A stretch of DNA of 64,000 bases from contig NZ_JAQNDL010000001.1 of the NCBI RefSeq assembly GCF_028368995.1, forward strand, positions 352,001 through 416,000, written 5' to 3'. How positions within the stretch are numbered: position 1 is the stretch's first letter; every line of letters starts with the position of its first letter. Positions 1 through 63,818 of this stretch are shown here, piece by piece. The notes beneath the pieces were generated by a model. That model worked only from the letters and a program-made list of their open reading frames with translations. It was not told where the DNA came from and ran no database searches. A program made the translations under genes and the position numbers. Origin of the DNA: Nannocystis bainbridge. Its GTDB lineage: Bacteria; Myxococcota_A; Polyangia; Nannocystales; Nannocystaceae.

Positions 1-75
1 GTCCCTTTCGCCATGTCCTTACAGGCATGCCCTAAAATACATGCCCGTAAGCACATGTCCTCCAGGGCATGCCCC
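1..75. repeat. 14-bp-phased tandem array of the TGYCY-N4-RGRCA palindrome (may extend beyond the window start)
   Basis: CATG cores at 12, 26, 40, 54, 68 (period 14), downstream of the CDS ending at 119. Confidence 0.9.
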
Positions 76-118
76 AAAGTTCTAGCCGCCGATCACCCGC
101 GGGCCGGCGGCCCCTTTT

Positions 119-1804
119 TTAAAGACCTTCGAGGTGGGCCCGCTGGACGATCCGCGCGTCGAGCGTCACATAGCCGCGCGGGCCGGCGCACAGGCGCACC
201 GGGCTGAGGTCGACCAGCTCGAGGCGGCCCTCGCTGTCGACGCTGGCGACCCCGAAGTGGCGGACCAGCGCGTCGAGGCGGAGGAACAGCCCCGCCAGCT
301 CGCGCAGCCCCGGGTCGTCCTTGCGGCGCAGCGGCACCCCCGCGACGATCGCCTGGGCGAACAGCATCGCCTCCGCCGGATCGAGCGGCGACAGCCGCAG
401 CACCACCTCGTGGTGGCCCGCCAGCGCGCGCCCGAACAGCGCCGTCTCGCCGCTCTGCAGCGCCACCGCCCCGCAGTGGATCTCGAGCCCCTCGCCGATC
501 TGCTCGGCCACCAGCACGCCGTCGAGGTGGGCCGTCGGCGCCCGCTCCTCGACGTTGGCCACGACCGTCGCGTAGGCCCGGCGGACCGCCGCCGAGGTCG
601 TGAGATCGAGGACCACCGCCCCGAGCTCCTGCTTGCGCCGCAGGTCGGGGCTGACCGCCTTGAGCACCACCGGGAACCCGATCTGCTCGGCGAACTGGGC
701 CGCGCCGCTGGCCGAGCCGGCCACCGCCTGGCGCGTCACCTCGATGCCGAAGCCGCGCAGCACCACCTTGCTCTCGTGCTCCGACAGCGCCTGCCCGGCC
801 GAGCGCAGCACCTCCTCCGCGCGGGCCAGCGCCGCCGGATCGATCACCGGCGTCGGTTCGTCGGCGGCCGCGCGGACCAGCGCCTCGGCGCGCTCGCGGC
901 GGAGCAATGCCCGCTGGGCCAGGAACGCGTCGGTCGTCGCGCTCGCCGGCCCGCGCAGGCGCAGGCCCGGGTGCGGCGCCGCCATCCCCGGGTCGTCGGC
1001 CTGCAGCGGCAGCGCCCGCTGCGCCTGGCGCCACAGCGCCGCCTGCGAGGCTGCCTCTTCGGACATGCCCTCGGCGACATGCCCCGAAGGACCTGTCCCC
1101 GGCGACATGCTCTGCGCGTCGAGCAGCAGCGCCAGCACCCCCGGGCTCGGGAACACCGGCCCCGTCAGCCGCTCGAGCGCGTGGGCGGCCGCCACCTGGC
1201 CGAGCGACGGGTGGCGCGGCTGATCGATCCGCGGCGCCTCGACCCCGAGCGGCACCACCACCTGGCGCGCCCCGGCGGTGCCGGCCCAGCGGGCCCAACC
1301 CGCGTGCAGGCTCGCCACTGGCACCATGCCCGCGACACGGCAGCCGGCCAGCTCGGGCGCCGCCAACCACTCGGACAGCCACGCCAGCGCCGGGCACAGC
1401 GACAGCCGCGGCTGCACCCCGGCGGCCACGAACGCGGCCCGCAGCCCCGCCAGCGCCCCCGCCTCGGGCCCGACCAGCACCAGCTCGCCGGCCTCCACCA
1501 TCACCTGCGCCGCCGGCCCGAGCACGCGCGACGTCAGCCCGACCGGCAGCTCCGGCCCCGTGATCACCAGCAGCGCCGGCGGCCGCTCGCGCAGCGCTCG
1601 CAGCAGCGTCGGCGACGGCTCGCGCGCGACCACCACCACCGCGCCCTGCTCGCGAACCCGCCGGGCCAGCGCCGCCTCGCCGAGCACCTCGCCGGCGCCG
1701 ACGAACGCGGCCCCGACGTCCTCGCCGACCAGCGCCTCGCCGGCCAGCAGCGCCCGCAGGGCCGACCTGGCCGGAGAGACAGATCGATCGGGAGCCGTCA
1801 CCAA
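119..1804 (-). CDS. Acetate--CoA ligase (ADP-forming) family protein with C-terminal ATP-grasp domain, diverged
   Basis: LSEHESKVVLRGFGIEV...IGFPVVLKAVSPD and GYVTLDARI resemble the ATP-grasp_5 domain; N-terminal CoA-ligase part is degenerate. Confidence 0.7.
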   Translation of the reverse strand: MVTAPDRSVSPARSALRALLAGEALVGEDVGAAFVGAGEVLGEAALARRVREQGAVVVVAREPSPTLLRALRERPPALLVITGPELPVGLTSRVLGPAAQVMVEAGELVLVGPEAGALAGLRAAFVAAGVQPRLSLCPALAWLSEWLAAPELAGCRVAGMVPVASLHAGWARWAGTAGARQVVVPLGVEAPRIDQPRHPSLGQVAAAHALERLTGPVFPSPGVLALLLDAQSMSPGTGPSGHVAEGMSEEAASQAALWRQAQRALPLQADDPGMAAPHPGLRLRGPASATTDAFLAQRALLRRERAEALVRAAADEPTPVIDPAALARAEEVLRSAGQALSEHESKVVLRGFGIEVTRQAVAGSASGAAQFAEQIGFPVVLKAVSPDLRRKQELGAVVLDLTTSAAVRRAYATVVANVEERAPTAHLDGVLVAEQIGEGLEIHCGAVALQSGETALFGRALAGHHEVVLRLSPLDPAEAMLFAQAIVAGVPLRRKDDPGLRELAGLFLRLDALVRHFGVASVDSEGRLELVDLSPVRLCAGPRGYVTLDARIVQRAHLEGL

Positions 1805-1814
1805 GGCGCGCCCG

Positions 1815-2621
1815 TCACACGATGACCGGCTTCCACAGCTCGCTGTGGAGCTGCTTGACCGCCTCCGGCCACGCGCCGGGCAGGACCCAATCGGCGCGGG
1901 TCCAGGTGGCGTCGATCTCGGCGTTCTCGCCGGGGAACAGGATCAAACGGGCGCCCGGGCCACGCGCGGCCAACGTCGGCGGCACCGGCTGGTCGGTCCC
2001 GCCGAGCCACAGCAGCGTGCCCGAGGTGTGCTGGTCGAGGTACTCCGGCCCGGCCGGCTTGGCGCCGATCGACGCCAGGGCCGCGCGCGCGGCCTGATCG
2101 AGGTCTTCGCGGGCGAAGTACCGCAGCGGGCCGCGGCCGCTGTGCTGCTCGAGGCGGGCGACCCACTCGGGCAGGTCGACCAGGCTCGCCTCGTTGTCGT
2201 ACTCGGCGTCGATGATCGCGGGCAGCTCGTACCACGGCAGCGCGCCGGCCACGATCGCCGTCACCGAAGCCAGCCGCTCCCACTCGACCTCGGGCTCTTG
2301 CAGCCACAGCGCCTCGGCCCCGCCGAGCGACTCCGCCGCGGCCAGGCCCTCGTCGGTGTGCGGCACGAACACCAGCAGCGGGTGCAGCCGGTCTTGCAGC
2401 GGCCGCAAGCCCGCCGGGCCGAGGAACGTCAGCCCGTCGGCGCCGAACCGGCTCACCGCGCCGATGACGAACTGGTCGGCGCGTCCGGCGTCGCCGGGGC
2501 AGACCGCGCTGACGGTGGCGCCGCGCTCGCTGCCGATGTCACGGGCGAGGCACAGGGCCGCGGCGCTGGCCGGATGGATCCCCTGCGGGGTGCGCTGGGC
2601 GTAGACCAGGATATGAGCCAT
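1815..2621 (-). CDS. Hypothetical protein resembling a highly diverged ETF alpha subunit
   Basis: N-terminus (MAHILVYAQRTPQGIHPASAAALCLARDI) and C-terminus (ADWVLPGAWPEAVKQL) align by eye with the EtfA at 23805; FAD-binding motifs not visible. Confidence 0.5.
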   Translation of the reverse strand: MAHILVYAQRTPQGIHPASAAALCLARDIGSERGATVSAVCPGDAGRADQFVIGAVSRFGADGLTFLGPAGLRPLQDRLHPLLVFVPHTDEGLAAAESLGGAEALWLQEPEVEWERLASVTAIVAGALPWYELPAIIDAEYDNEASLVDLPEWVARLEQHSGRGPLRYFAREDLDQAARAALASIGAKPAGPEYLDQHTSGTLLWLGGTDQPVPPTLAARGPGARLILFPGENAEIDATWTRADWVLPGAWPEAVKQLHSELWKPVIV

Positions 2622-4138: not shown

Positions 4139-4504
4139 ATGCCCGCGCCCCGCGATTTCTCCGAGTTTTGGCCGTTCTACCTCGGCGAGCACCGCCACCC
4201 CGTCAACCGCGCGCTGCACTACGTCGGCACCAGCAGCGCCTGGCTCTTCGTGGCCTGGATGGCCTGGACGGGCCGCTGGAGCCTGTTCCCGCTGGCTCTG
4301 GTGATCGGCTACGGCCCGGCGTGGATCGGTCACTTCTTCATCGAGCACAACAAGCCGGCCAGCTTCAAGTATCCGCTGTGGTCCCTGTTCGGCGACATGA
4401 AGATGCTGCGCCTCCGCCTCACCGGCCGCATGCGCGGCGAGATGATCCGCCTGTTCGGCAGCACCGCCCCGGCCCCCGACGCCCCCCAGCGCGCCCGCAC
4501 CTGA
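4139..4504 (+). CDS. DUF962 (Mpo1-like) membrane protein
   Basis: FWPFYLGEH..NRALHYVG and AWIGHFFIEHNKPASFKYP His motifs. Confidence 0.85.
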   Translation: MPAPRDFSEFWPFYLGEHRHPVNRALHYVGTSSAWLFVAWMAWTGRWSLFPLALVIGYGPAWIGHFFIEHNKPASFKYPLWSLFGDMKMLRLRLTGRMRGEMIRLFGSTAPAPDAPQRART

Positions 4505-4515
4505 GCCCCTGCGTC

Positions 4516-4570
4516 CCTGTCCCGAAGGACAGGCGATCCGCGCCGTCAGGCACCTGTCCCGAAGGACAGC
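4516..4570. repeat. Two isolated copies of CCTGTCC-CGAA-GGACAG
   Basis: Perfect TGTCC-N4-GGACA at 4518-4531 and 4555-4568, just after the DUF962 stop. Confidence 0.85.
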
Positions 4571-4687
4571 CCGGGTATCACGCCCCGCTCCGGGGACCGC
4601 GGCTCGCTCGCCGCTGGCCCTCGCTCATCTCCCGCGCCTCTGTCCTTTGCGACACCTGATCCCCGCGCCCGCTCGCCCCCCGTCCTG

Positions 4688-5797
4688 ATGCCTTCGCTCC
4701 CGATCACCCTCGAGGCCGCCCTGCGCGACGCGCGGTCGCCCGATCCGACGTCTCGCAGCGTCGCCGTGCGTCACCTCGCCGCCGCCCTCCTGGCCGAGCT
4801 CGGCGACCCCTCGCCCGCCCTCGACCTGGCGCGTGGCCACGCGCTCGGCGAGGCCGTCGTCGCCGCCCTGACCGCCGCGCTCGACGATCCGCAGGTGCCC
4901 GTCCGGGCCATGGCCGCGACCGGCCTCGGTCAGCTCGGCGAGCCTGCCGTCATCGCCCGCATCGACCCCTGGCTGCAGGACCCCGACCCCGGGCCCGACG
5001 CTGGTTACCTGCGCGAGTGCGCCGCCATCACCTGCGTGCTCCTCGGCCTCGCCTCGGCCCCCGAGCACCTCGTCAGGGCCGACGACGGCGAGGGCACCCG
5101 CCCCACCGAGGCCCCGCCGGCCGCGCCGCATCCCTTGCGTCCTCCGGGACATGTCCCGAGCGACCTGTCCCGAGTCACCTACGAGGCCGCGCTCGCGCGC
5201 ATCACCGCGGCCCTCCGCGCCCCCGCGCCCGACCTGCGGTTCCAGGCCGCCGGTGGCCTCGTCGAGCTCGCCGGTCGCGCCGCCGAGCCGGCCCTGTGCG
5301 CCGCCCTCGACGGCGAGAGCCACCCGCACGTCCGCCTCGCCCTCGTCAGCGCCCTCGCCGAGCTCGACCCGCCGGGGTCCGAGGCCTGCGCCCGCCTCGC
5401 CGCCGTGGTCGCCGATCCCGGCGCCGCCGTCGAGCTCGCCTTCGCCGCCGCGCTCGGCCTCGCCGCCGCCCGCGACCCGAGCGGCGGCCCGCCCCTCGTG
5501 CTCGGTCTCCAGCGCTCCGGCGACCGCGCCCGCGCGCTCGAGGGCCTCGCCGCGCTCGGGCTCGCCGCCCCGCCGGCCGCCGTCCCGCTGGCCCTCAAGC
5601 TCGCCCGCGCCTGGCTCACCCCGTCCGTCATGCGCGTGCGCGCCGCCTACGCCCTGGTCCGCATGGCCCCCGAGACCGGCCAGCCGCTGTTGGACGAGTT
5701 CGCCCGCAGCCGCCGCCCCGCCGTCCAGGAGGCCGTCGCCGACGCCCGCGCCGCCCTCGCGCAGCTGACTCTTCAGGACATGTCCAAGCGGACATAG
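4688..5797 (+). CDS. HEAT/PBS-lyase repeat protein
   Basis: Repeated 'D..VRA.AA..LG.LG' helical repeats (ALDDPQVPVRAMAATGLGQLG, ESHPHVRLALVSALAEL). Confidence 0.75.
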   Translation: MPSLPITLEAALRDARSPDPTSRSVAVRHLAAALLAELGDPSPALDLARGHALGEAVVAALTAALDDPQVPVRAMAATGLGQLGEPAVIARIDPWLQDPDPGPDAGYLRECAAITCVLLGLASAPEHLVRADDGEGTRPTEAPPAAPHPLRPPGHVPSDLSRVTYEAALARITAALRAPAPDLRFQAAGGLVELAGRAAEPALCAALDGESHPHVRLALVSALAELDPPGSEACARLAAVVADPGAAVELAFAAALGLAAARDPSGGPPLVLGLQRSGDRARALEGLAALGLAAPPAAVPLALKLARAWLTPSVMRVRAAYALVRMAPETGQPLLDEFARSRRPAVQEAVADARAALAQLTLQDMSKRT

Positions 5798-5852
5798 TCT
5801 TTAATACATGTCCAAACGGGCATGCCTCGAAGGACATGCACGAGCGGACGAC
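5765..5852. repeat. 14-bp-phased palindrome array overlapping the HEAT gene stop
   Basis: Cores at 5779, 5793, 5807, 5821, 5835, 5849. Confidence 0.9.
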
Positions 5853-6185: not shown

Positions 6186-8180
6186 GTGACCCTGGCCACG
6201 GCACCCGATCCCCGCAGCGACCTCGCCCACGCCTACGAGCTCGCCGTGCAGCACCTCCGCGGCGTCCAGGCCAAGAAGGGCGCCGTCGGCGGCGAAGTCA
6301 TCTGGAACCCGATGCTCGTGTGCCAGTACGTGATGGCGTGTCACGTCCTCGGGCGCCCGATCGCCCCCGAGCGGCAGCGGCGGATCCGCCTCGCCCTCGA
6401 GCGCCAGGTGCGGGCCGACGGCGGCTGGGGCATGCACCCCGACAGCGACAGCTGGCTGTTCCACACCACTCTCGGCTACGTCACCCTGCGCCTGCTCGGC
6501 CACCCGCCCGAAGACCCGCTGGCCGCCGGCGCGCTGCGGTGGATCCGGGCCCACGGCGGCGTGACGAAGAACCCGACCTGGGGCCGGATCTGGCTGGCCC
6601 TGCTCGGCCTCTACCCGTGGCAGAGCGTGCAGCCGATCCTGCCCGAGATGTGGCTCCTGCCCGAGGCCACGCCGGTCCACCCGCGCCGCCTCTACTGCCA
6701 CATGCGCCTGATCTACCTCGGGCTCAGCTACCTCTACGGCGCCCGCGTCCAGGCCCCGATGTCACCTGTCCTTCGGGACATCCGCGACGAGCTCTACGAC
6801 GGCGCCTACGAGCGCGCCCCGTTCCGCGCCCACCGCGACGACATCGCCAGCACCGACCTCTACGAAGCGCCGGGCGCCGGCCTGCGCGTCGCCTTCGCCG
6901 CCATGCGGGCGCTCGACCGCGTCGCGCCCGGCGTCGTCCGCAAGAAGGCCCTCGCCCGCGCCATCGAGCACGTCCTGTTCGAGCTGCGCAGCACCGGCCA
7001 CGTATGCCTCAGCCCCGTCAACGGCCTGCTGTTCAACCTCGCCCTGCACCACCATGACCCGCGCCACCCCGACGCCGACCAGGCCTTCCGCGGCCTCGAG
7101 TACTGGTTCTGGGAGGACGACGTCGAGGGCGCGCGGATCTGCGGCGCCCGCAGCGACATCTGGGACACCTCCTTCCTGCTGCAGGCGCTGTGCGAGGGCC
7201 CGCAGAGCGCCACCGGCGAGGCGCTCGGCCGCGACGCCGCCGCCTGGCTGGCGACCGCGCAGATCCGCGGCGACATCCCCGGCGGCGCCGAGCACTTCCG
7301 CGAGCCCGCCGACGGCGGCTGGGGCTTCGCCGACGAGCGTCACCCGTGGCCCGTCAGCGACTGCACCGCCGAGGCGCTCGAGGCCCTGATCCACTGCGCC
7401 GACCACCGCCTCGCCGAGCCGCTCCCGCGCGAGCGCCAGCTGGCCGCCCTGCGGTTCGTCCTCCGCCGCCAGAACGAGGACGGCGGGTTCGGCTCGTACG
7501 AGCCGCGCCGCGGCAGCCTCGTGCTCAAGCACTTCAACCCCGCCGAGATCTACGGCAACTGCATGCTCGAGTACTCGTACTCCGAGTGCACCGCCAGCTG
7601 CGTCCGCGGCCTCGCCCTCGCCCGCGCGCGCCTCGGCGACGCCATCCCGCCCGGCCTGCTCGCCGACGTCGAGACCGCGATCGAGCGCGGCGTCTCGTTC
7701 CTGCTCGGCGCCCAGCACCCCGACGGCGGCTGGCTCGGCTTCTGGGGCATCAACTTCACCTACGGCACCTTCTTCGCGGTGCACGCCCTGCTCGCCGCCG
7801 GGCTGCCGCGCCACCACCCTGCGATCCGCCGCGCCGTCGCCTGGCTGGTGCGCCGCCAGCGGCCCGACGGCGGCTGGGGCGAGAGCTTCGAGGGCCTGCT
7901 CGACGGCCGCGACGTCCAGCTCCCGCCGCACGAGCCGAGCCTGGCCGCCCAGACCGCCTGGGCCGCCCTCACGCTCATGGCCGCCGAGACCCCCGACGAG
8001 GCCCCGGCGATCGAGCGCGCGATCGTTTACCTGCACGCCCGCCAGCAGCCCGACGGCAGCTGGCCGCACGAGCGCGCCAGCGGGGTCTTCTTTAATACGG
8101 CCGTGCTCGACTACGACCTCTACCGCCAGATCTTCCCCGCCTGGGCCCTGGCCCGCCGCCTCGGCCGCGCGGCCGAGTGA
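6186..8180 (+). CDS. osc: 2,3-oxidosqualene cyclase (sterol-type triterpene cyclase)
   Basis: Catalytic HPWPVSDCTAE (DCTAE, not the DxDD of squalene-hopene cyclases), YCHMRLIY, several QW motifs (QNEDGGF, QHPDGGW, QRPDGGWGE, QQPDGSW), SGVFFN..LDYDLYR.IFP C-terminus. Confidence 0.9.
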   Translation: MTLATAPDPRSDLAHAYELAVQHLRGVQAKKGAVGGEVIWNPMLVCQYVMACHVLGRPIAPERQRRIRLALERQVRADGGWGMHPDSDSWLFHTTLGYVTLRLLGHPPEDPLAAGALRWIRAHGGVTKNPTWGRIWLALLGLYPWQSVQPILPEMWLLPEATPVHPRRLYCHMRLIYLGLSYLYGARVQAPMSPVLRDIRDELYDGAYERAPFRAHRDDIASTDLYEAPGAGLRVAFAAMRALDRVAPGVVRKKALARAIEHVLFELRSTGHVCLSPVNGLLFNLALHHHDPRHPDADQAFRGLEYWFWEDDVEGARICGARSDIWDTSFLLQALCEGPQSATGEALGRDAAAWLATAQIRGDIPGGAEHFREPADGGWGFADERHPWPVSDCTAEALEALIHCADHRLAEPLPRERQLAALRFVLRRQNEDGGFGSYEPRRGSLVLKHFNPAEIYGNCMLEYSYSECTASCVRGLALARARLGDAIPPGLLADVETAIERGVSFLLGAQHPDGGWLGFWGINFTYGTFFAVHALLAAGLPRHHPAIRRAVAWLVRRQRPDGGWGESFEGLLDGRDVQLPPHEPSLAAQTAWAALTLMAAETPDEAPAIERAIVYLHARQQPDGSWPHERASGVFFNTAVLDYDLYRQIFPAWALARRLGRAAE

Positions 8181-8191: not shown

Positions 8192-8242
8192 CGAGCATGT
8201 CCATCAGGACATGCTCGTTTCGACATGTCCCTGAGGACCGCC
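8192..8242. repeat. 14-bp-phased palindrome array
   Basis: Cores at 8196, 8210, 8224, 8238; convergent osc/apt junction. Confidence 0.85.
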
Positions 8243-8386: not shown

Positions 8387-8470
8387 GTCACATGCTCGTT
8401 CGAACATGACCCTTCGGACATGCTCGTTCGAACATCCCCCGGCGAACATGCCCCCGCGGACATGTCCCCC
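8387..8470. repeat. 14-bp-phased palindrome array
   Basis: Cores at 8391, 8405, 8419, 8433, 8447, 8461. Confidence 0.9.
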
Positions 8471-8479
8471 CGCCCCGGC

Positions 8480-9052
8480 TCAGAACGCCAGCAGCGCCTC
8501 GACCCGCAGCGGCGCCAGCCGCTCGCGGCCCTTCAAGAAGGGCAGCTCGATCAGGAACAGGCTCGCCACCACCTCGCCGCCGAGCCCCGTGACCAGCCTC
8601 GCCGCCGCGCCCGCCGTGCCGCCCGTGGCCAGCAGGTCATCGATCAGCAGCACCCGGTCGCCGGGCTCGATCGCGTCGGCGTGCATGTGCAGCGTGCCTT
8701 CGCCGTACTCGAGCGCGTACGCCTGCGTCACCGTGGCGGCCGGCAGCTTGCCCGGCTTGCGCGCCGGCACGAAGCCGACCCCGAGCGCGTGCGCGATCGG
8801 CATGCCGAACAGGAACCCGCGCGACTCGACGCCGACGATTCGATCGATCGAGCCGGCCAGGTCGGCCACCGCGTCCAGATGGAGGCGCAGCGCCGCGGCC
8901 ATCGCCGCCGGCTCGCGCAGCACCGGGGTGATGTCGCGGAACAGGATCCCCGGCGACGGGAAGTCCGGCACCGCGCGGATCAGGCTGCCGACGTCGCGCA
9001 GCGCCGCCGCGCGCTCGGCCTCGGACATGCGAAAATCGGGGCTCTCGCGCAT
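8480..9052 (-). CDS. apt: Adenine phosphoribosyltransferase
   Basis: IRAVPDFPSPGILFRDITP, GVESRGF, RKPGKLP, YALEYG, VLLIDDLLATGGT; alternative start 9028. Confidence 0.95.
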   Translation of the reverse strand: MRESPDFRMSEAERAAALRDVGSLIRAVPDFPSPGILFRDITPVLREPAAMAAALRLHLDAVADLAGSIDRIVGVESRGFLFGMPIAHALGVGFVPARKPGKLPAATVTQAYALEYGEGTLHMHADAIEPGDRVLLIDDLLATGGTAGAAARLVTGLGGEVVASLFLIELPFLKGRERLAPLRVEALLAF

Positions 9053-10008: not shown

Positions 10009-10085
<77 letters not shown>

Positions 10086-11593: not shown

Positions 11594-12568
11594 TTGTCCC
11601 TCGCCTCGCTGCGCGCGCGTCCTTCGGCGATCGGCCTGCTCGTCTGGTCGCTCGTGGTCTGCGTGCGCCTCGGCGATCTCGGCGACGAGGCCACCCTCGC
11701 CGAGGTCATCGTCCTGTTCGTCGTCCTCGTCGCCGTCCCGCGGGCCCTGCTTTTTACTGCCTCGGAGGACATGTCCCCGAGGACATACGCCAATCCGACC
11801 CGCCTCGCTCGCATCGCCGGCCTCGCCGGCCTCGTCGCCGCCGTCCCGGCCCTCGCCCCTGACCTCGGACCTCGCGCCGCCGCCGGGCTCACCGCGCCCT
11901 GGCTGCTCGTGTGCGGCTTCGCGGCTCTTCACGGCCTCCTGCGCCTCCACGTCCGCCGCAGCCTCGCCCCCGCCGAGCTCGCCCTCGACCTCGCCCTCTT
12001 GCTGCTGCCCGTCGCCGCGGTGTGGTTGCTCGTCTACCGCGGCGACCTCGTCCTCGGCGGCTTCGGGGGCCTCGCCGCCGTGCTCACGGCCGGCCACTTT
12101 CACGCCGCCGGCTTCGGCGCGCTCGTCATGGTCGGCCTGCTCGGCCGCGGCCTCGGCGACCTGCGCGACTGGACCCGCCCCGTCTACCGCCTCGCCGCCG
12201 CCCTCCTTATTTTCGCCTTCCCCCTGCTCGCGGTCGGCATCGGCGCCGGCGCCCGGCCGATCGAGCTGGCCGGCTCCGGCCTCTACGTCCTCGGCCTCCC
12301 GCTGCTCGCCGGCCTGCAGCTCATCGCCGCCGTGCGCCTGCGCGACCGGCCGGCCTGGGCACGCGTTCTCCTGTGCGTGTCCTCCGGGGCGCTCCTGCTG
12401 AGCACCACCCTCGCCGGCATGTTCGCCGCCCAGGGCTTCTACGGCGCCGCCGTCCCGATCCTCACGATGCTGCGCGCCCACGGCCTCGTCAACGCGATCG
12501 GCTTCCTCGGCCTCGGCCTGCTCGCCTGGTCCGGCCTGCACCGCGCGACCGGCCCGCAACCCGCCTGA
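11594..12568 (+). CDS. YndJ-like integral membrane protein
   Basis: Many TM helices; LTAGHFHAAGF and HGLVNAIGF motifs; start uncertain. Confidence 0.65.
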   Translation: MSLASLRARPSAIGLLVWSLVVCVRLGDLGDEATLAEVIVLFVVLVAVPRALLFTASEDMSPRTYANPTRLARIAGLAGLVAAVPALAPDLGPRAAAGLTAPWLLVCGFAALHGLLRLHVRRSLAPAELALDLALLLLPVAAVWLLVYRGDLVLGGFGGLAAVLTAGHFHAAGFGALVMVGLLGRGLGDLRDWTRPVYRLAAALLIFAFPLLAVGIGAGARPIELAGSGLYVLGLPLLAGLQLIAAVRLRDRPAWARVLLCVSSGALLLSTTLAGMFAAQGFYGAAVPILTMLRAHGLVNAIGFLGLGLLAWSGLHRATGPQPA

Positions 12569-13085
12569 CCTGAAGGACATCCCGCCTGTCCACAAGGACA
12601 GATGGCGTGAACGTTCGAGTCCTGCCCGTCCTCGAGACGGATGGCACGGGCGCTCCAGTTATTCCTGTCCGCAAGGACAGGCGGCACGAGCGATCGAGCT
12701 CTGACGGTCCCCGAGATCAGGTGACACGGACGCTCCAGTGATTCCTGTCCGCAAGGACAGGCGGCACGGGCGCTCGAGTTCTGACGGTCCCCAAGATCAG
12801 GTGACACGACCACTCCAGTTATTCCTGTCTGAAAGGACGGGCTTCCCTGGCGCTCGTGCCGCCTATCCGTCAGGACAGGCAGCACGAGCACGATGCCGCC
12901 CGTCCCCGAGATCAGGTGACCAGTCGCTTCGTGGAAGTCACACCGGAATCGCTACAGCTACCCGATGGGCCGGGGCGCTCCAATTCTTCCTGTCCGAAAA
13001 GCACAGGCTATGCCGACGCTCAGTCTGCCTGTCCGCAAGGACAGGCAGCACGAGCGCTCGGCTTCTGCCTGTCCCCCGAGGACGT
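12565..13085. repeat. Composite tandem repeat (~80-bp unit of two ~40-bp halves) carrying CCTGTCCGCAAGGACAGG
   Basis: 12651-12730 and 12731-12810 are near-identical; degenerate copies flank them; convergent junction. Confidence 0.9.
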
Positions 13086-16957: not shown

Positions 16958-16962
16958 GCCCG
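16890..16962. repeat. 14-bp-phased palindrome array
   Basis: Cores at 16899, 16913, 16927, 16941, 16955, just after the pspA stop. Confidence 0.9.
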
Positions 16963-38871: not shown

Positions 38872-40683
<1,812 letters not shown>

Positions 40684-44963: not shown

Positions 44964-44985
44964 TCGCCAGCCGCTGAGTATCGCC

Positions 44986-45020
44986 GAAGGGCCCCGCCGC
45001 ACCGCGCCGGGGCCCTTTCT
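44986..45020 (+). terminator. Possible terminator hairpin after gltA
   Basis: GAAGGGCCCCG...CGGGGCCCTTTC inverted repeat; short U tract. Confidence 0.55.
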
Positions 45021-45094
45021 GCGTCCGCCCGCCGGCACCGCGGGCTCGCTTCATCCCACTGGCGAACGAGTTCCGCAGGCGGGAGAGCGCCCCA

Positions 45095-45130
45095 AAGCCT
45101 GTCCTATCGGACATGTACTCAAGAACATTC
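45095..45130. repeat. Short 14-bp-phased palindrome array
   Basis: Cores at 45098, 45112, 45126; convergent junction. Confidence 0.75.
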
Positions 45131-45163
45131 GCCCATCGCTCGAGACTCTGTGCGAGCCCCCTG

Positions 45164-46998: not shown

Positions 46999-48141
46999 GT
47001 GGCACAACGGCTCGTCGTCCTCGCCCTCGGCGCCGCGTTCGCAACGACCGGCTGCAGCGACGACTGCGGCGACAGCGAGTACCACGACGCCGAGATCTGT
47101 TTTAAGGAACATGTCCTCGAGGTCCAGTCCGAGGCCGCCAGTCCCCTCGCCTTGCGCGCGGCCGACTTCGACGGCGACGGCCTCGACGACCTCCTTATCG
47201 TCGGCGCCGCTGCCGGCACCATCACCACCGACTTGCGGCGCGGCGACGGCGACGGCGGCCTCGGCGAGCCGCGCGACGTCGGCGTCGCCGGCTGCAGCGC
47301 CTATCCAGTGGTCGGCGACCTCGACCTCGACGGCGCCGCCGACCTCCTGTTCCCCAGCTGCGACGGCGGCGTGTTCGTCTACCGGGCCGACGGCGCCGGC
47401 GGCTTCGCGGCGCCCGTCGAGGTCCCTGTCGGCCTCAAGATCCGCACCACCGCCGTCACCGACGTCGACGGCGACGGCCGCCGCGACCTGCTTGTCCTCG
47501 GGGACATGTCCGAAAAGCCAGCCATCAGCCTCGTCCGGGCCGACGCCGCTGGCGGCTTCGCCCCGCCGGAGGTCCAGCCCCTGTTCGTGCCCGGCCTCGA
47601 AGACCTCGATCCTGGCGGCTTCGTCGCCGGTCGCCTGCGCCGCGACGGCCCGGTCGAGCTTGTCCTCGCCGAGTGGGACCGCAGCGACGGCCTCGCGCGC
47701 GCCACCATCACCGCCGGCGCCATCGGGCCGTTCGTCGCCATGACCACCGGCCTGCGCCCCGGCGCCCTCCACCTGCGCGACCTCGACGACGACGACATCC
47801 TCGACGTCCTCGTCCTCGACACCGCCCCGGTCGCCCTCGCCCCGCTGCTCGGGCCCGACCTGTCCGAAGGGCCACGTACCGCCCTCGGCTCGCGCCCCGG
47901 CCCGATCGCCCTCGCCCACCTCGACGGCGACGGCAGCCTCGACGCCGTGCTGTTCCACGGCGACCGCCTCGGCCTGTGGCGCGGCGTCGGCGACGGTCGC
48001 TTCACCGCCGCGATCCAGCTCGAGTTCTCGACCGACGTCGTCGAGGTCGTGCTGCCCGATCTCAACGCCGATGGCCGGGCCGACATCGTCGCCGGCCTGT
48101 TCCCCGACGGCGGCCTCGCCATCCGCCTCAGCGGCCCCTGA
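46999..48141 (+). CDS. FG-GAP/VCBS repeat lipoprotein
   Basis: ADFDGDGLDDL, GDLDLDGAADL, DVDGDGRRDL, DLNADGRADI. Confidence 0.82.
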   Translation: MAQRLVVLALGAAFATTGCSDDCGDSEYHDAEICFKEHVLEVQSEAASPLALRAADFDGDGLDDLLIVGAAAGTITTDLRRGDGDGGLGEPRDVGVAGCSAYPVVGDLDLDGAADLLFPSCDGGVFVYRADGAGGFAAPVEVPVGLKIRTTAVTDVDGDGRRDLLVLGDMSEKPAISLVRADAAGGFAPPEVQPLFVPGLEDLDPGGFVAGRLRRDGPVELVLAEWDRSDGLARATITAGAIGPFVAMTTGLRPGALHLRDLDDDDILDVLVLDTAPVALAPLLGPDLSEGPRTALGSRPGPIALAHLDGDGSLDAVLFHGDRLGLWRGVGDGRFTAAIQLEFSTDVVEVVLPDLNADGRADIVAGLFPDGGLAIRLSGP

Positions 48142-48839: not shown

Positions 48840-48905
48840 TTCGGACATGCCCCCGGGGACATGCCCCCGGGGACATGCCCGCCGGGGCATGTCCTCCGGG
48901 ACACC
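48840..48905. repeat. 14-bp-phased array filling the convergent intergenic gap
   Basis: Cores at 48846, 48860, 48874, 48888, 48902. Confidence 0.92.
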
Positions 48906-52043: not shown

Positions 52044-52093
52044 TCAGCTGTCCTTACGGACAGACTCATTGCTCAGCTGTCCTTCCGGACAGC
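52044..52093. repeat. Duplicated TCAGCTGTCC-TTNC-GGACAG sites
   Basis: Perfect TGTCC-N4-GGACA at 52049-52062 and 52078-52091. Confidence 0.8.
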
Positions 52094-52675
52094 CGCAGTA
52101 GTCAAACCCGTTCGACCCGATCCTCGTCCGACCCGCAGTCCGATCGCCAGCAGCAGCGCGTAGAGCAGCAGCTCGAGCAGCTCCTGCGCCGCGCGCTCCC
52201 ACGCCGCTGACATGTTGCCGGCCACGAACAGCCCCGCGATCGCCACGAACGCCCACCGCTCGTCGCGGCTCGGTGCGAGTCCGCCGAGCCACCGCCGCGG
52301 GGCCGCGAAGTAGCCGATCAGCGGCAGCGCGAACAGCAGGTACGACGACCCGCGGGCGGCGTTGTGCATGTTGCGGTGGCCGAACGCCCCGGCCATGCGC
52401 TCGCCGATGGTCGTCCAGCCGTACACGCTGCCCCAGTCGACCTCCTCGACCAGCACCAGCGCCAGGAACCCCGCCATCGCCAGCGCCACCGCTCGCCTGT
52501 CCGCCCGCCGGCCCGCCAGCGCCCACGCCACCACCGCCGCCGCCAGTACCGCGTGCGACGCGTGCTCCGCCGGGCCCTCCTTCGCCAGCAGCGCGGCGGT
52601 CCACGCCGGGCTCGTCAGGGCCGCCGTCACGGCCACGGCCGCGATCGTCAGCGCCGTGATCGTCCGCGGGAGCAC
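52073..52675 (-). CDS. Hypothetical membrane protein
   Basis: KEGPAEH, EEVDWG, NMHN, QELLE motifs between TMs; start uncertain. Confidence 0.6.
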   Translation of the reverse strand: MLPRTITALTIAAVAVTAALTSPAWTAALLAKEGPAEHASHAVLAAAVVAWALAGRRADRRAVALAMAGFLALVLVEEVDWGSVYGWTTIGERMAGAFGHRNMHNAARGSSYLLFALPLIGYFAAPRRWLGGLAPSRDERWAFVAIAGLFVAGNMSAAWERAAQELLELLLYALLLAIGLRVGRGSGRTGLTTAAVRKDS

Positions 52676-53049
52676 GACCGGAGCATAGAGGATCTCGAGG
52701 CGGCTGGGCCTGGTCCTCGCGGCGCCGTCGCGTTCGAAGTCGCCGCGGAGGTTCGCGCACCCGCTCGCTGGCGCCCCGTCGCGACCGGGCCCACAAGCAA
52801 GGCGATTTCCCACCCGGGCCGCGGACCACGCGCCGCAGCGGCCCGGTTGGCAGCGAGGCAAGCACGATGCGCAAGCTCGGCACCCCACCTCCGTCCAGCG
52901 CCCTGCTGCTCGAGCGACGGACCCTGCACCTCACCTACGAGCGTCCGCCCGCCCGCGTGCCGTGGCTGACCCCCGTCGTCATCCCCGCGATGGTGGTGCT
53001 GCTGGTCGCCACCGTCCTTATCTACGTGTTCGCCGCGCAGTGATCGACA

Positions 53050-55050
53050 ATGACGACCCCGCCGAAAAGACCTGTCCCCGAGGACAGCGAAGCGACGAGC
53101 CCCGCCGGCCCGCCGTCTTCGCCTGTCCCGGAGGACAGCCTAAGCGCGGTCGTCGCGGAGGACAGCCTCGGCGCGGTGGTCCCCCGCGCGCACGGACCCG
53201 AGGCGCCGCCGCCACCTGTCCCCGAGGCCAGTCGCGCGAGCCCCTCTTCGTCATCACCTGTCCCCGAGGACAGCCACGGCGCCGCGCTGCCCTCATCACA
53301 TGTCCCCGAGGACAGCCCACGCGAGGCTCCCGCGGAGGCCCGTGCGGCCGCTCCCGACGCGCCATCTGTCCCCGAGGACAGCCCCGCTTCGCCTCGCGAG
53401 ATCGTCATCCCTCGGCTCGAGGAGCGGCTGAGCGTCGGCGCTCGCGTGCGCGAGCAGGGCCGCGTGCGCGTCGACAAGACCGTCGACGCCCGCGACCAGC
53501 AGGTCGAGCTCGCCAGCGTCGAGGAGCACGTGGTCAGCTGGCGGGTCCCGATCGGTCGCCCGGTCGAGGCCCCGGCGCCGGTCCGCCGCGAGGGCGACAC
53601 CTTGATCCTGCCGGTCCACGAGGAGGTCGTGGTCGTGCAGAAGCAACTCGTCCTCCGCGAGGAGCTGCACATCCGCGTGCATCGCGTGCCCCTCCACGAG
53701 CAGCAGACGCTGCGGCTCCGCGCCGAGGCGATCTCTGTCACCCACAACCGAACCACCCCAGGAGAAGCCGCCATGAAAACCGTCATCGGTCTGTTCGACG
53801 ATTTTACCGACGCGCAGGCCGTCGTCACCGCCCTGCTCAAGCGCAACATCGATCGCGCGGACGTGAGCGTCGTCGCCAACAACCTCGAGAACATCCCGAT
53901 CAACCTCGACAAAGATCCGTCCGAGGGGCGCCACGAGGCGATGGCCGAGAGCGCCAAGACCGGCGCCGGCACCGGCGCGATCGTCGGCACCGGCGTCGGC
54001 GGTGTGCTCGGCTTCCTCGCCGGCATCGGCTCGATCTTCATCCCCGGCGTCGGCCCGATCGTCGCCGCCGGCCCGCTGCTCGCGGCCCTCACCGGCGCCG
54101 GCGTCGGGGCTGCCGCCGGCGCCGCGCTCGGCGGCCTCGTCGGCGCGCTGACCCAGGCCGGCGTGCCCGAGCACGACGCCCACTTCTACGCCGAGGCCGT
54201 GCGCCGCGGCGGCACCCTCGTGCTCGTGCAGTCCGCGGACGAGCGCGCCTCCGACGTCGCCTCGATGATGAGCGGCGCGGGCGCGGTCGACGTCGATCGC
54301 CGCCGCGAACACTTCCACGCCACCGGCTACAAGGGCTACGAGCCGACGACCAAGCCGTACACGATGGAGCAGGTGTCGCGCGAGCGTCAGACCTACCGCG
54401 CCCAGCCGGCCGCCACCGGGGCGACCATGCGGACGCAGCAACCGGCGCCCTCGCAGGGTCAGCGGCCGACCGAGGCGTCGGGCACGATCGGCGCCAAGGG
54501 CACGACCGGCGCGGCGCAGAAGATGGAGCAGCCGCACTTCAAGGACGCCTCGATGGAGATGAAGGTCGTCGAGGAGGACCTGCTGGTCGGCAAGCGCGTC
54601 GTCGAACACGGCCGCGTCCGCGTCTACGCGCGGGTCACCGAGCGCCCGGTCGAGGAGCAGGTCAGCCTGCGCGAGGAGCACGTGACGGTGAAGCGCCGGC
54701 CCGTCGACCGCCCGGCCACCGGCGAGGACATGGGCGCCTTCCGCGAGTCCTCCATGGAGATGACCGAGTACGCCGAGGAGGCCGTGGTCGCCAAGGAGGC
54801 GCGCGTGGTCGAGGAGGTCGTGGTCGGCCGCGAGGTCGAGACGCGCACCGAGACCGTGCGCGACAAGGTGCGGCGCACCGACGTCGAGGTCGTCGAGGAG
54901 CCGACGCCGGCCACGACGGTCTCGACCACGCCGATGCACAAGGTCGCCGGCACCGCCCAGCCCGCCCAGCCCGCCCAGCCCGCCGCCACCAACCGGCCGA
55001 TGCCGCCGCCGCCGCCGCAGGGGCAGAAGCGACGCGCCTCCGGCAGTTGA
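53050..55050 (+). CDS. YsnF/AvaK (DUF2382) general-stress-like protein; probable fusion with an internal start at 53773
   Basis: Two DUF2382-like segments (LEERLSVG.., [30 protein letters not shown]) flanking a Gly-zipper domain ([12 protein letters not shown]). Confidence 0.8.
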
Positions 55051-55171
55051 ACCGCTTACCCGCGAGGGTTTCGGCGATAGGCCGGGCCCTCGCCGGACAT
55101 GCCCGTAAGAACATGTCCGCTCCCGCCGCGTCCCGCCAGGGACGCGGATTTTTTCGCTATCCTCGCGCGCG

Positions 55172-58374: not shown

Positions 58375-58677
58375 ATGTTCCGCCCGACCCCCCTCAAGCT
58401 GATCCTCGGCCTCGTGCTGGTCGGCGCCACCTACTTCGTGGCCGCCAACTCGCACATGGACATCTTCCCCTGCAAGAAGACCCGCGAGGACCTGGTAACC
58501 CGTCGCCTCGTGACCGACGAGTCCACCTGCAGCATCCTGCAGACCCACGGCGACTACTACCAGCCGCCGGAGAGCGCCAAGCTCACCGAGGCCGGCTGGG
58601 CCACCGCCGTGGTCGTGATCGGCCTGGTCCCCCTGCTGCTCGGCTTCGCCATCGGCTCCCGCTTCTCGAAGAAGTGA
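58375..58677 (+). CDS. Small membrane protein
   Basis: Two TMs, two Cys, high GC3. Confidence 0.65.
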   Translation: MFRPTPLKLILGLVLVGATYFVAANSHMDIFPCKKTREDLVTRRLVTDESTCSILQTHGDYYQPPESAKLTEAGWATAVVVIGLVPLLLGFAIGSRFSKK

Positions 58678-58752
58678 GCCTGCCCTCGAGGACATGCCTG
58701 AACGGACATGTCCCCTTCGCCATGCCCGATCGGGCATGTCCCTTCAGACATC
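58676..58752. repeat. 14-bp-phased palindrome array
   Basis: Cores at 58679, 58693, 58707, 58721, 58735, 58749; convergent junction. Confidence 0.92.
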
Positions 58753-61132: not shown

Positions 61133-62821
<1,689 letters not shown>

Positions 62822-62868
62822 GCGCGGTGATGACACGCGCGCTCGGCCGGGCGGTTACACTGCCCCGC

Positions 62869-63645
62869 ATGTCGAACGCACCGCTCGCGCTCATCACCGG
62901 GGCTGGCCGCGGCATCGGTCGCGCCGTCGCCGAGGCGCTCGCGCCGAACCACACCCTCCTGCTCGCCGGCCGCGACCGCGACGTCCTCGCGCGCACCGCC
63001 GCCGAGCTCGGCGCTCCGCACGGCGCCCACGTCCTCGGCGTCGACCTCGGCGAACCGGCCGCTCGCCGCTCCTTCCTGTCCGAAGTGACAGGTCTCGAAG
63101 GCCAGCTCGGCGCGCGGGTCCAGGTCCTCGTCAACAACGCCGGCGCCGCCCACTCCGCCCCGCTCGCGCGCACCGGCGACGACGACTGGGCCCGCCTGTT
63201 CGAGCTCAACTGCACCGCCCCGTTCGTCCTGACCCGCGCCCTCGTGCCCGGCATGATCGCCGGCGGCTGGGGCCGGATCGTCAACGTCGCCTCGACCGCC
63301 GCCCTCAAGGGCTACGCGTACACGGCCGCCTACTCGGCCAGCAAGGCCGGTCTGCTCGGCTGGACCCGCGCCCTCGCCGTCGAGCTGGCGGCCAAGGAAG
63401 TCACCGTCAACGCCGTCTGCCCCGGCTTCACCGACACCGACATCGTCGCCGACGCCGCCCGCAACATCCAGGCCACCACCGGCCGCAGCGAGGACGACGC
63501 CCGCAAGGCGCTGGCCCGCTTCTCGCCGCAGGGCCGGCTGCGCAGCCCGGCCGAGGTCGCCGACCTGATCGCCTGGCTCGTGCGCCCGGGCGCCGGCGGC
63601 GTCACCGGTCAGGCGCTGGCGATCGACGGCGGCGAGACGGCCTGA
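62869..63645 (+). CDS. SDR family oxidoreductase
   Basis: TGAGRGIG, NNAG, YSASK, NAVCPGFTDT. Confidence 0.92.
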   Translation: MSNAPLALITGAGRGIGRAVAEALAPNHTLLLAGRDRDVLARTAAELGAPHGAHVLGVDLGEPAARRSFLSEVTGLEGQLGARVQVLVNNAGAAHSAPLARTGDDDWARLFELNCTAPFVLTRALVPGMIAGGWGRIVNVASTAALKGYAYTAAYSASKAGLLGWTRALAVELAAKEVTVNAVCPGFTDTDIVADAARNIQATTGRSEDDARKALARFSPQGRLRSPAEVADLIAWLVRPGAGGVTGQALAIDGGETA

Positions 63646-63724
63646 CCGAAGGGCCAGGTCTCGGCCGCAGCCCGTGCCCGCCGCGCCAACGGCAGCTCTG
63701 CCCGCGCCTGCCGGCGCACCAGCG

Positions 63725-63818
63725 GGCGCCTGTACGATCGCACATGCACGAAGGGGCAGGTCCCGAAGTACCTGCCCCTTTCGCCATGGCCCGAGGGACA
63801 TGCCCTCGCGGACAGCCG
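63725..63818. repeat. 7-unit 14-bp-phased palindrome array
   Basis: Cores at 63729, 63743, 63757, 63771, 63785, 63799, 63813; convergent junction. Confidence 0.88.

Follow-up and report, generated by a model that had tools for sequence, protein, structure and literature searches.

The 64,000-nt stretch analyzed here (the window), from the genome of the soil myxobacterium Nannocystis bainbridge, carries 27 perfect copies of the palindrome TGTCC-N4-GGACA, against 0.05 expected (100 dinucleotide-preserving shuffles; mean 0.05, maximum 2 sites). The palindrome occurs both as single sites and as head-to-tail arrays with a 14-bp period. Gene coordinates are those of our own codon-statistics caller and not of a curated annotation. 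The first array (1-75, five units with CATGYCC every 14 bp) is followed by a hairpin with a T-run on the forward strand (84-118) that reads as a terminator. The next one (1062-1111, four units) lies within the minus-strand ORF 119-1801, where it occupies a variable linker between domains; the G001 ortholog retains it. Five units at 5777-5850 overlap the stop codon of gene 4688-5797 (+), three units at 8193-8238 begin 13 nt past the stop of gene 6186-8180 (+), and six units at 8390-8473 lie a few nucleotides from the stop of gene 8480-9052 (-). The five-unit array 16896-16961 lies 11 nt past the stop codon of gene 16973-17674 (-); the called start of the gene next to this array probably extends too far upstream. 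Four units at 18964-19020 begin about 6 nt past the stop of gene 17790-18962 (+). A composite element (20534-20743) joins a unit-containing segmental repeat of 75 bp to a six-unit array (20659-20743) abutting the stop of gene 20744-21649 (-).

In the second half of the window, the array 29095-29170 (four to five units, spacer 28851-29337) has a counterpart in four relatives, and the five-unit array 33053-33123, located in a convergent spacer and beginning 3 nt past the stop of gene 31989-33050, is matched by about 3-5 units at the corresponding spacer of five relatives. Near the stop of gene 38872-40665 (-), the array 38782-38864 has six units of the variant GGACCTGYCC (CCTG core), common to three relatives. 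Four to five units at 48843-48905 fill a convergent spacer of 69 bp; the phase is unchanged in five relatives, where the spacer measures 62-82 bp and the unit spacers differ. The two-unit array 55095-55118, kept in 5/5 relatives with one or two core changes each, is followed by a canonical hairpin with a T-run (55128-55154) that is also conserved in 5/5 relatives. The array 58690-58750 (four to five units) lies in a convergent spacer past the stop of gene 58375-58677, and a degenerate six-unit array (63740-63814) lies 17 nt from the stop of the minus-strand gene starting at 63832. The ten arrays listed in the original prediction were thus all present with the 14-bp period, with refined limits; five others had been missed (1062-1111, 8193-8238, 18964-19020, 38782-38864, and 55095-55118).

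The ten single sites listed earlier were likewise all perfect, the one given as 30530 beginning at 30529. Pairs of perfect sites were found in a tandem spacer just past the stop of gene 4139-4504 (4518-4531 and 4555-4568), past the stop of gene 29338-30408 (30446-30542), in spacer 36200-36522 (36348-36503), and near the stop of gene 52073-52675 (-) (52049-52091), and one perfect site lies in the convergent spacer 44964-45163 (45100-45113). A tandem spacer contains three near-perfect sites, TGTCC-N4-AGACA (26642-26733), and five perfect and several imperfect sites lie upstream of gene 53446-55050 (53073-53380), the outer two being conserved in relatives. Four perfect and several degenerate sites cluster in a convergent spacer (12587-13043) inside local 40/80-bp tandem repeats, of which we found no copies dispersed elsewhere in the genome. 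Within genes, the site in the squalene-hopene cyclase gene 6186-8180 (6767-6780) is perfect in 4/5 relatives and that of the DNA polymerase III delta-prime-like gene (18593-18606) is identical in 5/5. The site GGACATGTCC-ccga-GGACA (11767-11785, gene 11594-12568) is kept perfect in 3/4 relatives with a hit there, and at 25110-25123 (codons AGG and ACA) the arms are kept in 3/5 relatives despite a different spacer. The site TGTCC-tcgg-GGACATGTCC (47493-47511) is perfect in 0/5 relatives and was therefore probably gained by point changes in the Nannocystis bainbridge lineage.

The whole 11-Mb genome contains 1,987 TGTCC-N4-GGACA sites (about 0.18 per kb). When all spacings from N0 to N30 were scanned, every spacing other than N4 gave 0-32 sites except N18 (379), the echo of the 14-bp period; the N3 and N5 versions had at most 16 sites each. 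Distances between cores (GNCATGNC) were 14 bp in 1,102 cases, 13 bp in three and 15 bp in two. About 700 head-to-tail arrays of 3-7 units share this exact period. The spacing of 1-3 kb initially proposed held for all occurrences of the motif (about one per 2.4 kb) but not for arrays alone (about one per 4-5 kb). The dyad consensus with its flanks was [A/C]TGTCC-N4-GGACA[T/G], and no conserved sequence was detected around the motif beyond the 14-mer. The claim that arms are conserved while spacers differ was largely borne out, except that adjacent spacers were identical in 3.9% of 1,821 pairs, compared with 1.1% among random pairs, so that a small fraction of units do resemble recent duplicates, as exemplified by the ccgg/ccgg repeats in arrays 48843-48905 and 18964-19020. 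In agreement with the original prediction, the motif had no match among the repeats and regulator sites described in the literature searched, and it seems to be undescribed.

Motif density was even along all five contigs, including two GC-skew switch points, with no ori/ter pattern. Together with sites numbering in the thousands rather than tens, this speaks against the suggestion of an organizer of the parS, NBS, SBS, or matS type that covers or avoids a region. Density climbed with GC content, from 2.7-4 sites per 50 kb below 70% GC to 8.7-11.2 above.

A total of 702 arrays were distributed between convergent (364), tandem (235), and divergent (19) spacers and called genes (84); at least two phased units occurred at 3.02, 0.50, and 0.07 per kb in the three kinds of spacers, respectively. 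The distance from stop to array had a median of 12 nt and did not exceed 24 nt in 75% of arrays; even when a spacer contained 300 nt or more of other sequence, the median was still 20 nt. Array-bearing tandem spacers with at most 40 nt of other sequence made up 9%, compared with 35% of all tandem gaps, and arrays thus avoid operon-internal junctions. Following 7,227 gene 3' ends, we found arrays at 841 and U-tract terminator-like sites at 467. Genes with an array behind them had higher codon scores (p = 9e-19). The 68 arrays deep inside called ORFs, one of which was verified, are awkward for any transcription-blocking element, and the 3'-end preference could partly reflect where insertions are tolerated.

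The motif was also abundant in genes, with 798 sites in called coding sequence (about 40% of perfect sites) compared with 18-31 after synonymous shuffling, an enrichment of about 30-fold. In a sample of only 24 intragenic sites, 17 were conserved, compared with 11.0 expected (p = 0.011). Over 524 kb aligned with one relative, identity was 88% at strict core positions, 77% at weak ones, 57% in spacers, and 85% at third codon positions, and at least two in-register units were kept in 18 of 24 assessable arrays. Five relatives, with about 83-94% gene identity across aligned blocks, carry arrays at the same orthologous spacers with different unit spacers. The motif was present in 11/11 Nannocystis genomes searched. 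The sister genera g2 and g4 have 67-169 sites, a single-site density roughly tenfold below that of Nannocystis, and almost no arrays (2-10 phased pairs), and the single-site layer would accordingly be older than the arrays. The proximity to stop codons, the 798 coding-sequence sites, and the array-less single sites of sister genera had all escaped the original prediction.

These conserved positions bear on the possibility that the palindrome is a selfish element, similar to REP/REPINs or MITEs, that a transposase has mobilized. A short palindrome in hundreds of copies enriched at gene 3' ends is what such an element would leave, but conservation stops at the 14-mer, core sequence persists as unit spacers diverge, orthologous spacers of these species have kept their arrays, the larger local repeats are not dispersed, and no larger mobile unit containing the motif was found in the genome. 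The Y1 transposase (RAYT) family was detected in 0/11 Nannocystis genomes by a search positive in 6/14 control genomes. The REP-like family proposed earlier is thus not supported, and we regard a mobile origin in general as very improbable. The REP/BIME elements of Escherichia coli and other proteobacteria are similar in being short palindromic units in hundreds of copies, clustered in extragenic locations close behind stops and between convergent genes, with proposed roles as terminator, mRNA stabilizer, or gyrase site (PMC12306157; bioRxiv 10.64898/2026.03.23.713779). The Nannocystis element differs by a unit of only 14 bp, an exact tiling period, RAYT detected in 0/11 genomes, stems not kept by compensatory change, about 40% of perfect sites in called coding sequence, and array positions stable across species.

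The resemblance to REP/BIME clusters also raises a purely RNA-based explanation, which we consider rather unlikely. Arrays would be transcribed as 3' UTRs forming long hairpins, in which the 10-bp palindromic units pair together and the 4-nt spacers form internal loops, and would act as bidirectional terminators lacking a U-tract or as 3' exonuclease blocks, with no dedicated protein. The stop proximity, the avoidance of operon-internal junctions, and the rarity of U-tract terminators all fit. The median z for array RNA folding was -4.4, with z below -2 in 90% of 70 sampled array-bearing convergent spacers, and the predicted folds of ten window arrays pair unit with unit (z -1.0 to -5.7 over both strands); with such strong predicted folding, a hairpin alone could do the job, no protein being needed. 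Motif-free convergent spacers were also structured (41% with z below -2, compared with 10% of divergent spacers), and the convergent-end niche is thus real. Within 150 nt past the stops in tandem spacers, the G·U-compatible GGGCATGTCC exceeded GGACATGCCC by 62:11 when the sense strand was G-rich, compared with 38:41 when it was C-rich, and a REP cluster reported to act as both terminator and stabilizer provides a precedent (bioRxiv 10.64898/2026.03.23.713779). However, the pooled G·U-compatible bias on the sense strand was weak, at 1.35-fold for spacers and 0.8-fold for coding sequence, many units would have A·C mismatches on the C-rich strand, and sense-strand loops showed no UUCG or GNRA preference. 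A hairpin would tolerate loops of 3, 5, or 6 nt, yet these are essentially absent; nor would it account for the coding-sequence enrichment of the same 14-mer or for single sites in sister genera without arrays. Structure-only constraint should also produce compensatory drift, whereas half-sites vary independently, with G2 and C4 almost invariant, and mirrored or adjacent units in 822 arrays were no more complementary to each other than to units from other arrays (difference about 0, SE 0.04-0.11). What is maintained is therefore the sequence itself and not a fold, which, with the strict N4 and 14-bp spacing, agrees with the initial proposal that the dyad is recognized as sequence.

A sequence could also be maintained by molecular drive (a DNA-uptake receptor, biased repair, or a methylation-linked system), the palindrome accumulating where tolerated with no site-by-site function, an idea discussed for DUS/USS and for cyanobacterial HIP1. 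A motif that is lineage-specific, found in every genome of the genus searched and in coding as well as non-coding DNA, its reading frames (410/221/58) reflecting codon usage, would be expected, as would an intragenic array located in a hypervariable linker (1062-1111); the rise with GC content fits if acquired DNA lacks the motif, and the density order convergent > tandem > divergent > coding fits tolerance. HIP1 (GCGATCGC) is comparable: according to PMC5861425, this palindrome is hyper-abundant in coding as well as non-coding DNA, exceeds codon-aware expectation by far, has sites conserved between genomes, and lacks a proven function. It belongs to a different phylum and is a contiguous octamer of different sequence, whereas the Nannocystis motif is a spaced dyad (5-4-5) with phased gene-end arrays as its second layer. 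The DNA uptake sequences of Neisseria are likewise short and genus-specific, lying in genes and spacers, often as inverted repeats immediately past gene ends; in Nannocystis, however, the unit itself is a strictly spaced palindrome, tiled, at about 0.18 per kb. The uptake signals known so far are asymmetric (9-12-mers) and not built as spaced dyads. Since drive predicts neither exact 14-bp tiling, stop proximity in long spacers, nor operon-junction avoidance, and orthologous sites are conserved rather than continually replaced, we find it improbable.

A protein reading the dyad could serve DNA topology or chromosome structure rather than RNA polymerase stopping, as the original prediction suggested: an abundant nucleoid-associated dimer would act, for example, by recruiting gyrase or topoisomerase IV, or by holding overtwisted DNA at the positive supercoils of convergent transcription. 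The dyad symmetry and strict spacing, the thousands of sites evenly spread along all contigs, and the concentration of arrays in convergent spacers and downstream of genes whose codon bias is stronger are in line with this, as would be a 14-bp step placing three units per four helical turns. Precedents are gyrase, which binds E. coli BIMEs, and GapR, which is located at 3' ends in Caulobacter. This possibility nevertheless appears doubtful to us: there is no regional ori/ter pattern, topology does not alone explain arrays within about 12 nt of stops even in long spacers, and it leaves the avoidance of operon-internal junctions unexplained. The candidate search yielded no binding protein in the two families examined: the motif was upstream of 0/8 inspected CRP-family hits, 7 of which have a called gene, and no PadR-family gene was detected. 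The likeness to metboxes, 8-bp sites in a few promoters where MetJ dimers bind cooperatively in tandem, is mechanistic only: short palindromes abut with a fixed period so that neighboring dimers could touch, but the Nannocystis box is 14 bp long and forms about 700 arrays behind genes.

The explanation that we favor, with a likelihood that we place a little short of even, is that a putative dimeric factor recognizes the palindrome, which Nannocystis tiles as gene-end punctuation limiting read-through; from the sequence patterns we infer both the existence of such a protein and an effect of arrays on transcription. The motif would be a two-layer cis-element specific to one lineage. Its first layer would be the 14-bp dyad, read as sequence, in the simplest case by a symmetric dimer bound to double-stranded DNA, at sites scattered through the genes and spacers of Nannocystis and sparser in two sister genera. 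The second layer, seen in Nannocystis only, would be the head-to-tail tiling in which neighbors abut as GGACA|TGTCC, placed 0-25 nt past stops at putative transcription-unit ends, above all between convergent genes. Through coating by the bound factor, an encoded long hairpin, or both, the arrays most likely serve as bidirectional gene-end punctuation that limits read-through, the genome being poor in U-tract terminators.

The palindrome TGTCC-N4-GGACA occurred 27 times in perfect form in the window, against 0.05 expected from dinucleotide-preserving shuffles, and it was abundant throughout the Nannocystis bainbridge assembly (five contigs, 11.05 Mb, 71.5% GC). When spacings of 0-30 nt were compared over the whole genome, N4 yielded 1,987 sites and, apart from an echo at N18 (379), every other spacing yielded 0-32. 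TGTCC ranked first among all 5-nt arms at spacer 4 in the genome, despite its two T's in GC-rich DNA. The inverse reading, GGACA-Nx-TGTCC, was found 956 times at N0, 638 times at N14 and 275 times at N28. Perfect cores (GNCATGNC) lay 14 bp apart in 1,102 cases, compared with 3 at 13 bp and 2 at 15 bp, and distances of 28, 42 and 56 bp were recovered 509, 457 and 218 times. The N4 spacing and the 14-bp period of the original prediction therefore hold across the genome; its ten single sites and ten arrays were all confirmed in the window, together with five further arrays. The abundant, spaced palindrome is real.

An array consists of the 14-bp dyad tiled head to tail, the CATG core being merely the junction of GGACA and TGTCC. 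Over 3,225 units, the unit read GGACATGYCC followed by 4 nt, with frequencies of 0.82 for G at position 2, 0.98 for C at position 4, 0.95 for both A at position 5 and T at position 6, 0.97 for G at position 7 and 0.86 for C at position 9; the soft positions were 3 (A, 0.60) and 8 (T, 0.56). The 4-nt spacers inside the units contained 41-58% A+T, versus 28.5% for the genome background. The bases flanking the motif were C...G outside arrays, as against A...T, each flank being chosen independently of the other. We counted 702 arrays of at least three units in the genome, and 14-bp chains extended from a perfect core comprised three, four, five, six, seven, eight and nine units in 362, 268, 185, 101, 29, 4 and 1 cases, respectively. 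Conservation of the flanks ended about 3 nt from the motif on either side, and the larger motif-bearing local repeats of the window (the 80-bp repeat at 12640-12725 and the clusters at 53044-53445 and 4505-4600) had no dispersed copies in the genome, so that the repeated entity is the 14-mer itself.

Two local peculiarities were observed in the window. The stretch 12585-12842 is a tandem repeat with a period of 80 bp (3.2 copies, 83% matches) that contains the palindrome in every copy and is absent elsewhere in the genome and from the same spot in the relatives. In some arrays, at 38782-38864 and 16924-16947, a CCTG core (GGACCTGYCC) replaces CATG; it is present in 6/6 units of the array 38782-38864 and likewise in the orthologous arrays of three relatives, which suggests concerted evolution inside this array.

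The placement of the arrays relative to genes was strongly biased, all counts being governed by the gene coordinates of our codon-statistics caller (8,197 genes, 84% coding). Phased unit pairs reached 3.02 per kb in convergent intergenic spacers, 0.50 in tandem and 0.07 in divergent ones, and of the 702 arrays, 84 fell within called genes, the convergent, tandem and divergent spacers accounting for 364, 235 and 19. For 85% of the arrays the overlap with called genes was below 20%, and these are thus extragenic in the REP sense. Measured from the stop codon, the array edge lay at a median of 12 nt (75th percentile 24 nt). Of 599 arrays in convergent or tandem spacers, 90 began before the stop, and the median was still 20 nt for those 112 whose intergenic spacer included 300 nt or more of additional sequence. 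Among convergent spacers between 60 and 500 bp long, about 30% held an array, a single one in 341 of 351. In tandem spacers, the arrays stood close behind the upstream stop and left a median of 184 nt to the next start. At most 40 nt of other sequence remained in 9% of array-bearing tandem spacers versus 35% of all tandem gaps, indicating that arrays avoid operon-internal junctions. Genes with an array behind them had a higher codon score (0.541 vs 0.494, p = 9e-19), and the ten array-followed genes examined in the window had housekeeping functions unrelated to one another.

Among 7,227 gene 3' ends, 841 were followed by an array and 467 (about 6%) by a hairpin plus T-run. We rejected the arrays as intrinsic (Rho-independent) terminators, since a hairpin with a T-run lay near only 85 of the 841 array-bearing 3' ends; it was placed before or within the array in 62 of these 85, and in two cases in the window a separate canonical terminator stood behind the array.

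REPs are described as short imperfect palindromes, highly repeated and extragenic (PMC12306157). The arrays share with REP/BIME elements a location at the 3' ends of genes and in convergent spacers (PMC12306157; bioRxiv 10.64898/2026.03.23.713779), but the element is not a member of that group. Single sites are not extragenic in the REP sense, because 798 of the 1,987 perfect sites fell in called coding sequence. Only 18-31 were obtained there in five synonymous-codon shuffles preserving both protein and codon usage, and the abundance thus withstands a codon-aware null. Deep inside genes, 689 intragenic sites were evenly distributed over gene length and occupied frames 2, 1 and 0 in 410, 221 and 58 cases, the order favoured by codon usage. 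Sixty-eight arrays also lay deep in our called ORFs. The one checked, at 1062-1111, is in the middle of an ORF of 561 aa, within a linker that differs in both length and sequence across 19 family orthologs, and it is retained in the ortholog of G001, one of the relatives compared. At the intragenic site 25110-25123, the AGG and ACA codons, which are presumably rare in GC-rich genomes, were kept in 5/5 relatives and the full site in 3/5, with a variable 4-nt spacer; this pattern hints at selection on DNA, not on protein. The one deeply conserved cross-genus site that we followed was inside long ORFs and had no promoter location.

In their genome-wide behaviour the single sites are similar to HIP1 (PMC5861425). 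They are over-represented in coding and non-coding DNA beyond codon usage, and conserved between genomes above background, with 17 of 24 intragenic sites kept in G001 where phase-matched windows predicted 11.0 (p = 0.011), a small sample. HIP1 of cyanobacteria is, however, GCGATCGC with cognate orphan methyltransferases; the Nannocystis motif has another sequence in another phylum and is therefore an analogue, not a member. The likeness to DNA uptake sequences is limited to the lineage-specific distribution of the motif and its spread over coding and non-coding DNA. We consider it very unlikely that an uptake- or HIP1-like drive produced the element.

The phylogenetic range of the motif was narrow. 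In a search of one genome per bacterial or archaeal species, 75 of 78 exact two-unit matches came from Nannocystis, Nannocystaceae or Myxococcales, and the 11/11 Nannocystis genomes searched contained 114-2,090 sites versus 1-6 for a reversed control pattern. Our survey of 46 genomes of the family gave 87-169 sites in all four genomes of one sister genus (g2) and 67-161 in all three of another (g4), compared with 6-20 in the genus g28 (controls 2-7) and 1-10, near the controls of 0-6, in ten other genera. The motif was enriched in 18/18 searched genomes of Nannocystis and the two sister genera, and stood at or near control level in 32/32 genomes from the 12 genera, among 16 other Nannocystaceae genera, in which it was counted. 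Phased pairs were nearly absent from the sister genera (2-10, vs 1,102 in N. bainbridge), and all 15 sites inspected in one genome, G013, were single, eight falling within called genes and the other seven between genes. Carriage of the motif by phages was set aside, as just one viral contig among some 2.9 million had a two-unit match (L144, 8925-8948). This match, apparently within a coding region of a contig with 66% GC over the 9.1 kb examined, is probably due to chance.

Five relatives syntenic with the window (about 79-94% identity over aligned blocks) had arrays in the same intergenic spacers and in the same phase, with variable unit numbers and 4-nt spacers, and the remainder of these intergenic spacers was often unalignable. 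Over the 524 kb compared with G001, at least two in-register units were kept in 18 of 24 assessable arrays, with a changed unit number in 13 of the 18. Identity was 0.88 for the strict core, 0.77 for weak positions and 0.57 for the 4-nt spacers, compared with 0.85 for third codon positions; the low spacer value is probably explained by a register shift following unit gain or loss. Adjacent unit spacers were identical in 3.9% of pairs versus 1.1% of random pairs, a slight likeness implying that recent slippage accounts for few units. The claim that the units are not recent slippage duplicates thus holds for most of them, but not without exception. In the window, the gene at 19142-20320 (minus strand) was non-syntenic in the five relatives, with best matches of 74-79% identity elsewhere in their genomes, and was probably inserted or replaced locally. 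Repeats with periods of 18, 36 and 54 bp (CCCTCGCCCGCGCC...) at 31618-31812, inside the called gene 30607-31875, probably encode a low-complexity protein segment.

The orthology of the arrays across species, the lack of flank conservation beyond about 3 nt and the absence of dispersed 80-bp repeats led us to reject a MITE/REPIN-type mobile element. The proposal of a new REP-like family was not borne out as far as an associated RAYT is concerned, since this IS200/IS605-type Y1 transposase (PF01797) was detected in 0/11 Nannocystis genomes, N. bainbridge included (marker completeness 64-91%), and in 6/14 controls. A selfish mobile repeat, with which the REP-like placement of the arrays would agree, appears extremely improbable.

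The case for an element acting purely as an RNA hairpin comes partly from predicted folds. In the ten arrays of the window analysed on both strands, these paired unit with unit with z of -1.0 to -5.7, and z was below -2 in 90% of array-bearing convergent spacers, the share being 41% for convergent spacers that lack the motif and 10% for divergent ones (70 sampled spacers per class). On our reading of these folds, the gene 3' end would be a real niche for hairpin-forming sequence. G·U-compatible forms, pooled over five positions, showed a sense-strand preference of 1.35-fold (tandem spacers) and 0.8-fold (coding sequence), and of about 2-fold at the middle position alone; GGACATGCCC and GGGCATGTCC, the common variants, followed GC skew for the most part, about threefold according to our log-odds estimate from counts. 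The half-site matrices showed that the two arms vary near-independently: G2 and C4 were nearly invariant, and at the soft middle position C-G pairs were 1.7-fold over expectation, with G-C and A-T at 0.9-1.0. Compensatory pairing was examined in 822 arrays of 3-6 units, each unit being paired with the mirrored unit (one long hairpin) or the adjacent unit (local hairpins) with the same-index unit of other arrays, matched in size and replication strand, as the reference; complementarity exceeded this reference by about 0 (SE 0.04-0.11). Given independent arms and no excess in 822 arrays, the stem-loop kept by compensatory change that characterizes REPs was not recovered. No UUCG or GNRA loop preference was seen on the sense strand. 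A fold into one long hairpin predicts a degenerate centre unit in odd-numbered arrays, and no such parity effect was seen, in a test biased by the array definition. The window's sole match to known RNA families in Rfam was the tRNA gene at 10010-10083 (minus strand). We regard a pure RNA hairpin as unlikely. In our reading of the sequences, the consensus itself appears to be preserved in arrays, and in that case something must read it.

The genome has a strong GC skew (absolute value about 0.05-0.10) that switches sign near 1.5 Mb on contig C3 and 4.3-4.5 Mb on contig C1, candidate origin and terminus regions, and a slight gene strand bias. Site density increased with local GC content and was even along the contigs, full 250-kb bins holding 12-79 sites each with no shift at C3 ~1.5 Mb or C1 ~4.3-4.5 Mb. 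A distribution linked to the origin or terminus, as one might look for in a chromosome organiser, was thus not observed. The comparison with parS, NBS, SBS, matS or ram sites did not survive either, as the motif is neither confined to nor excluded from any region and has thousands of sites, not tens. The broader view that the element is a nucleoid or topoisomerase site fits the strict spacing of the dyad, and it has to accommodate this flat profile; we judge it as improbable as the pure hairpin. Two families of regulators were also considered. The 4-6-4 geometry of the site presumably fits a CRP/FNR-type regulator, a candidate that we dropped because 0/7 PF13545 genes had even a relaxed motif within 350 nt upstream (20 matches at E ≤ 0.01 in the genome, of which the top 8 were examined, one having no called gene). 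A PadR regulator, whose consensus ATGT-N8-ACAT is compatible with the site, was discarded since a search of the genome gave no PF03551 match.

Searches of the literature, supplementary files aside, covered several notations of the motif as well as repeats of Nannocystis and REPs of myxobacteria, and found no description; term searches within two Nannocystis genome papers gave no passage on such a repeat. In line with the original prediction, the motif seems to have no prior description among Nannocystis or other myxobacterial repeats.

We tentatively favour an element made of two layers. In the first, the dyad would be read as sequence by a putative symmetric factor, and this layer would be old enough to be common to Nannocystis and the two sister genera. 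In the second, specific to Nannocystis, tiling of the dyad would produce arrays at gene ends that restrict read-through both ways. A bolder version, possible but rather doubtful, is that many Nannocystis transcription units are ended by a protein lattice instead of an RNA signal: a dedicated sequence-specific dimer would polymerise on 14-bp tilings just 3' of stops and act in both directions as a roadblock or insulator where genes converge, a system built from an older HIP-like palindrome that occurs as single sites in the sister genera.

Transcription ending and the separation of convergent genes are poorly understood in GC-rich bacteria with few U-tract terminators. The N. bainbridge genome provides some 700 near-identical candidate elements at gene ends, whose simple design can be altered in unit number, spacer length and core sequence, with a natural comparison in the sister genera, where the site is present and the arrays are absent. 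If no protein reads the site, the motif would be a clean case of a selected hyper-abundant palindrome and could inform the long-standing questions raised by HIP1 and REPs. If a protein does, it would give a handle on a new mechanism of termination or topology and would serve as a compact insulator part when myxobacterial gene clusters are engineered, and the protein lattice, if true, would be a new kind of bacterial gene-end punctuation.
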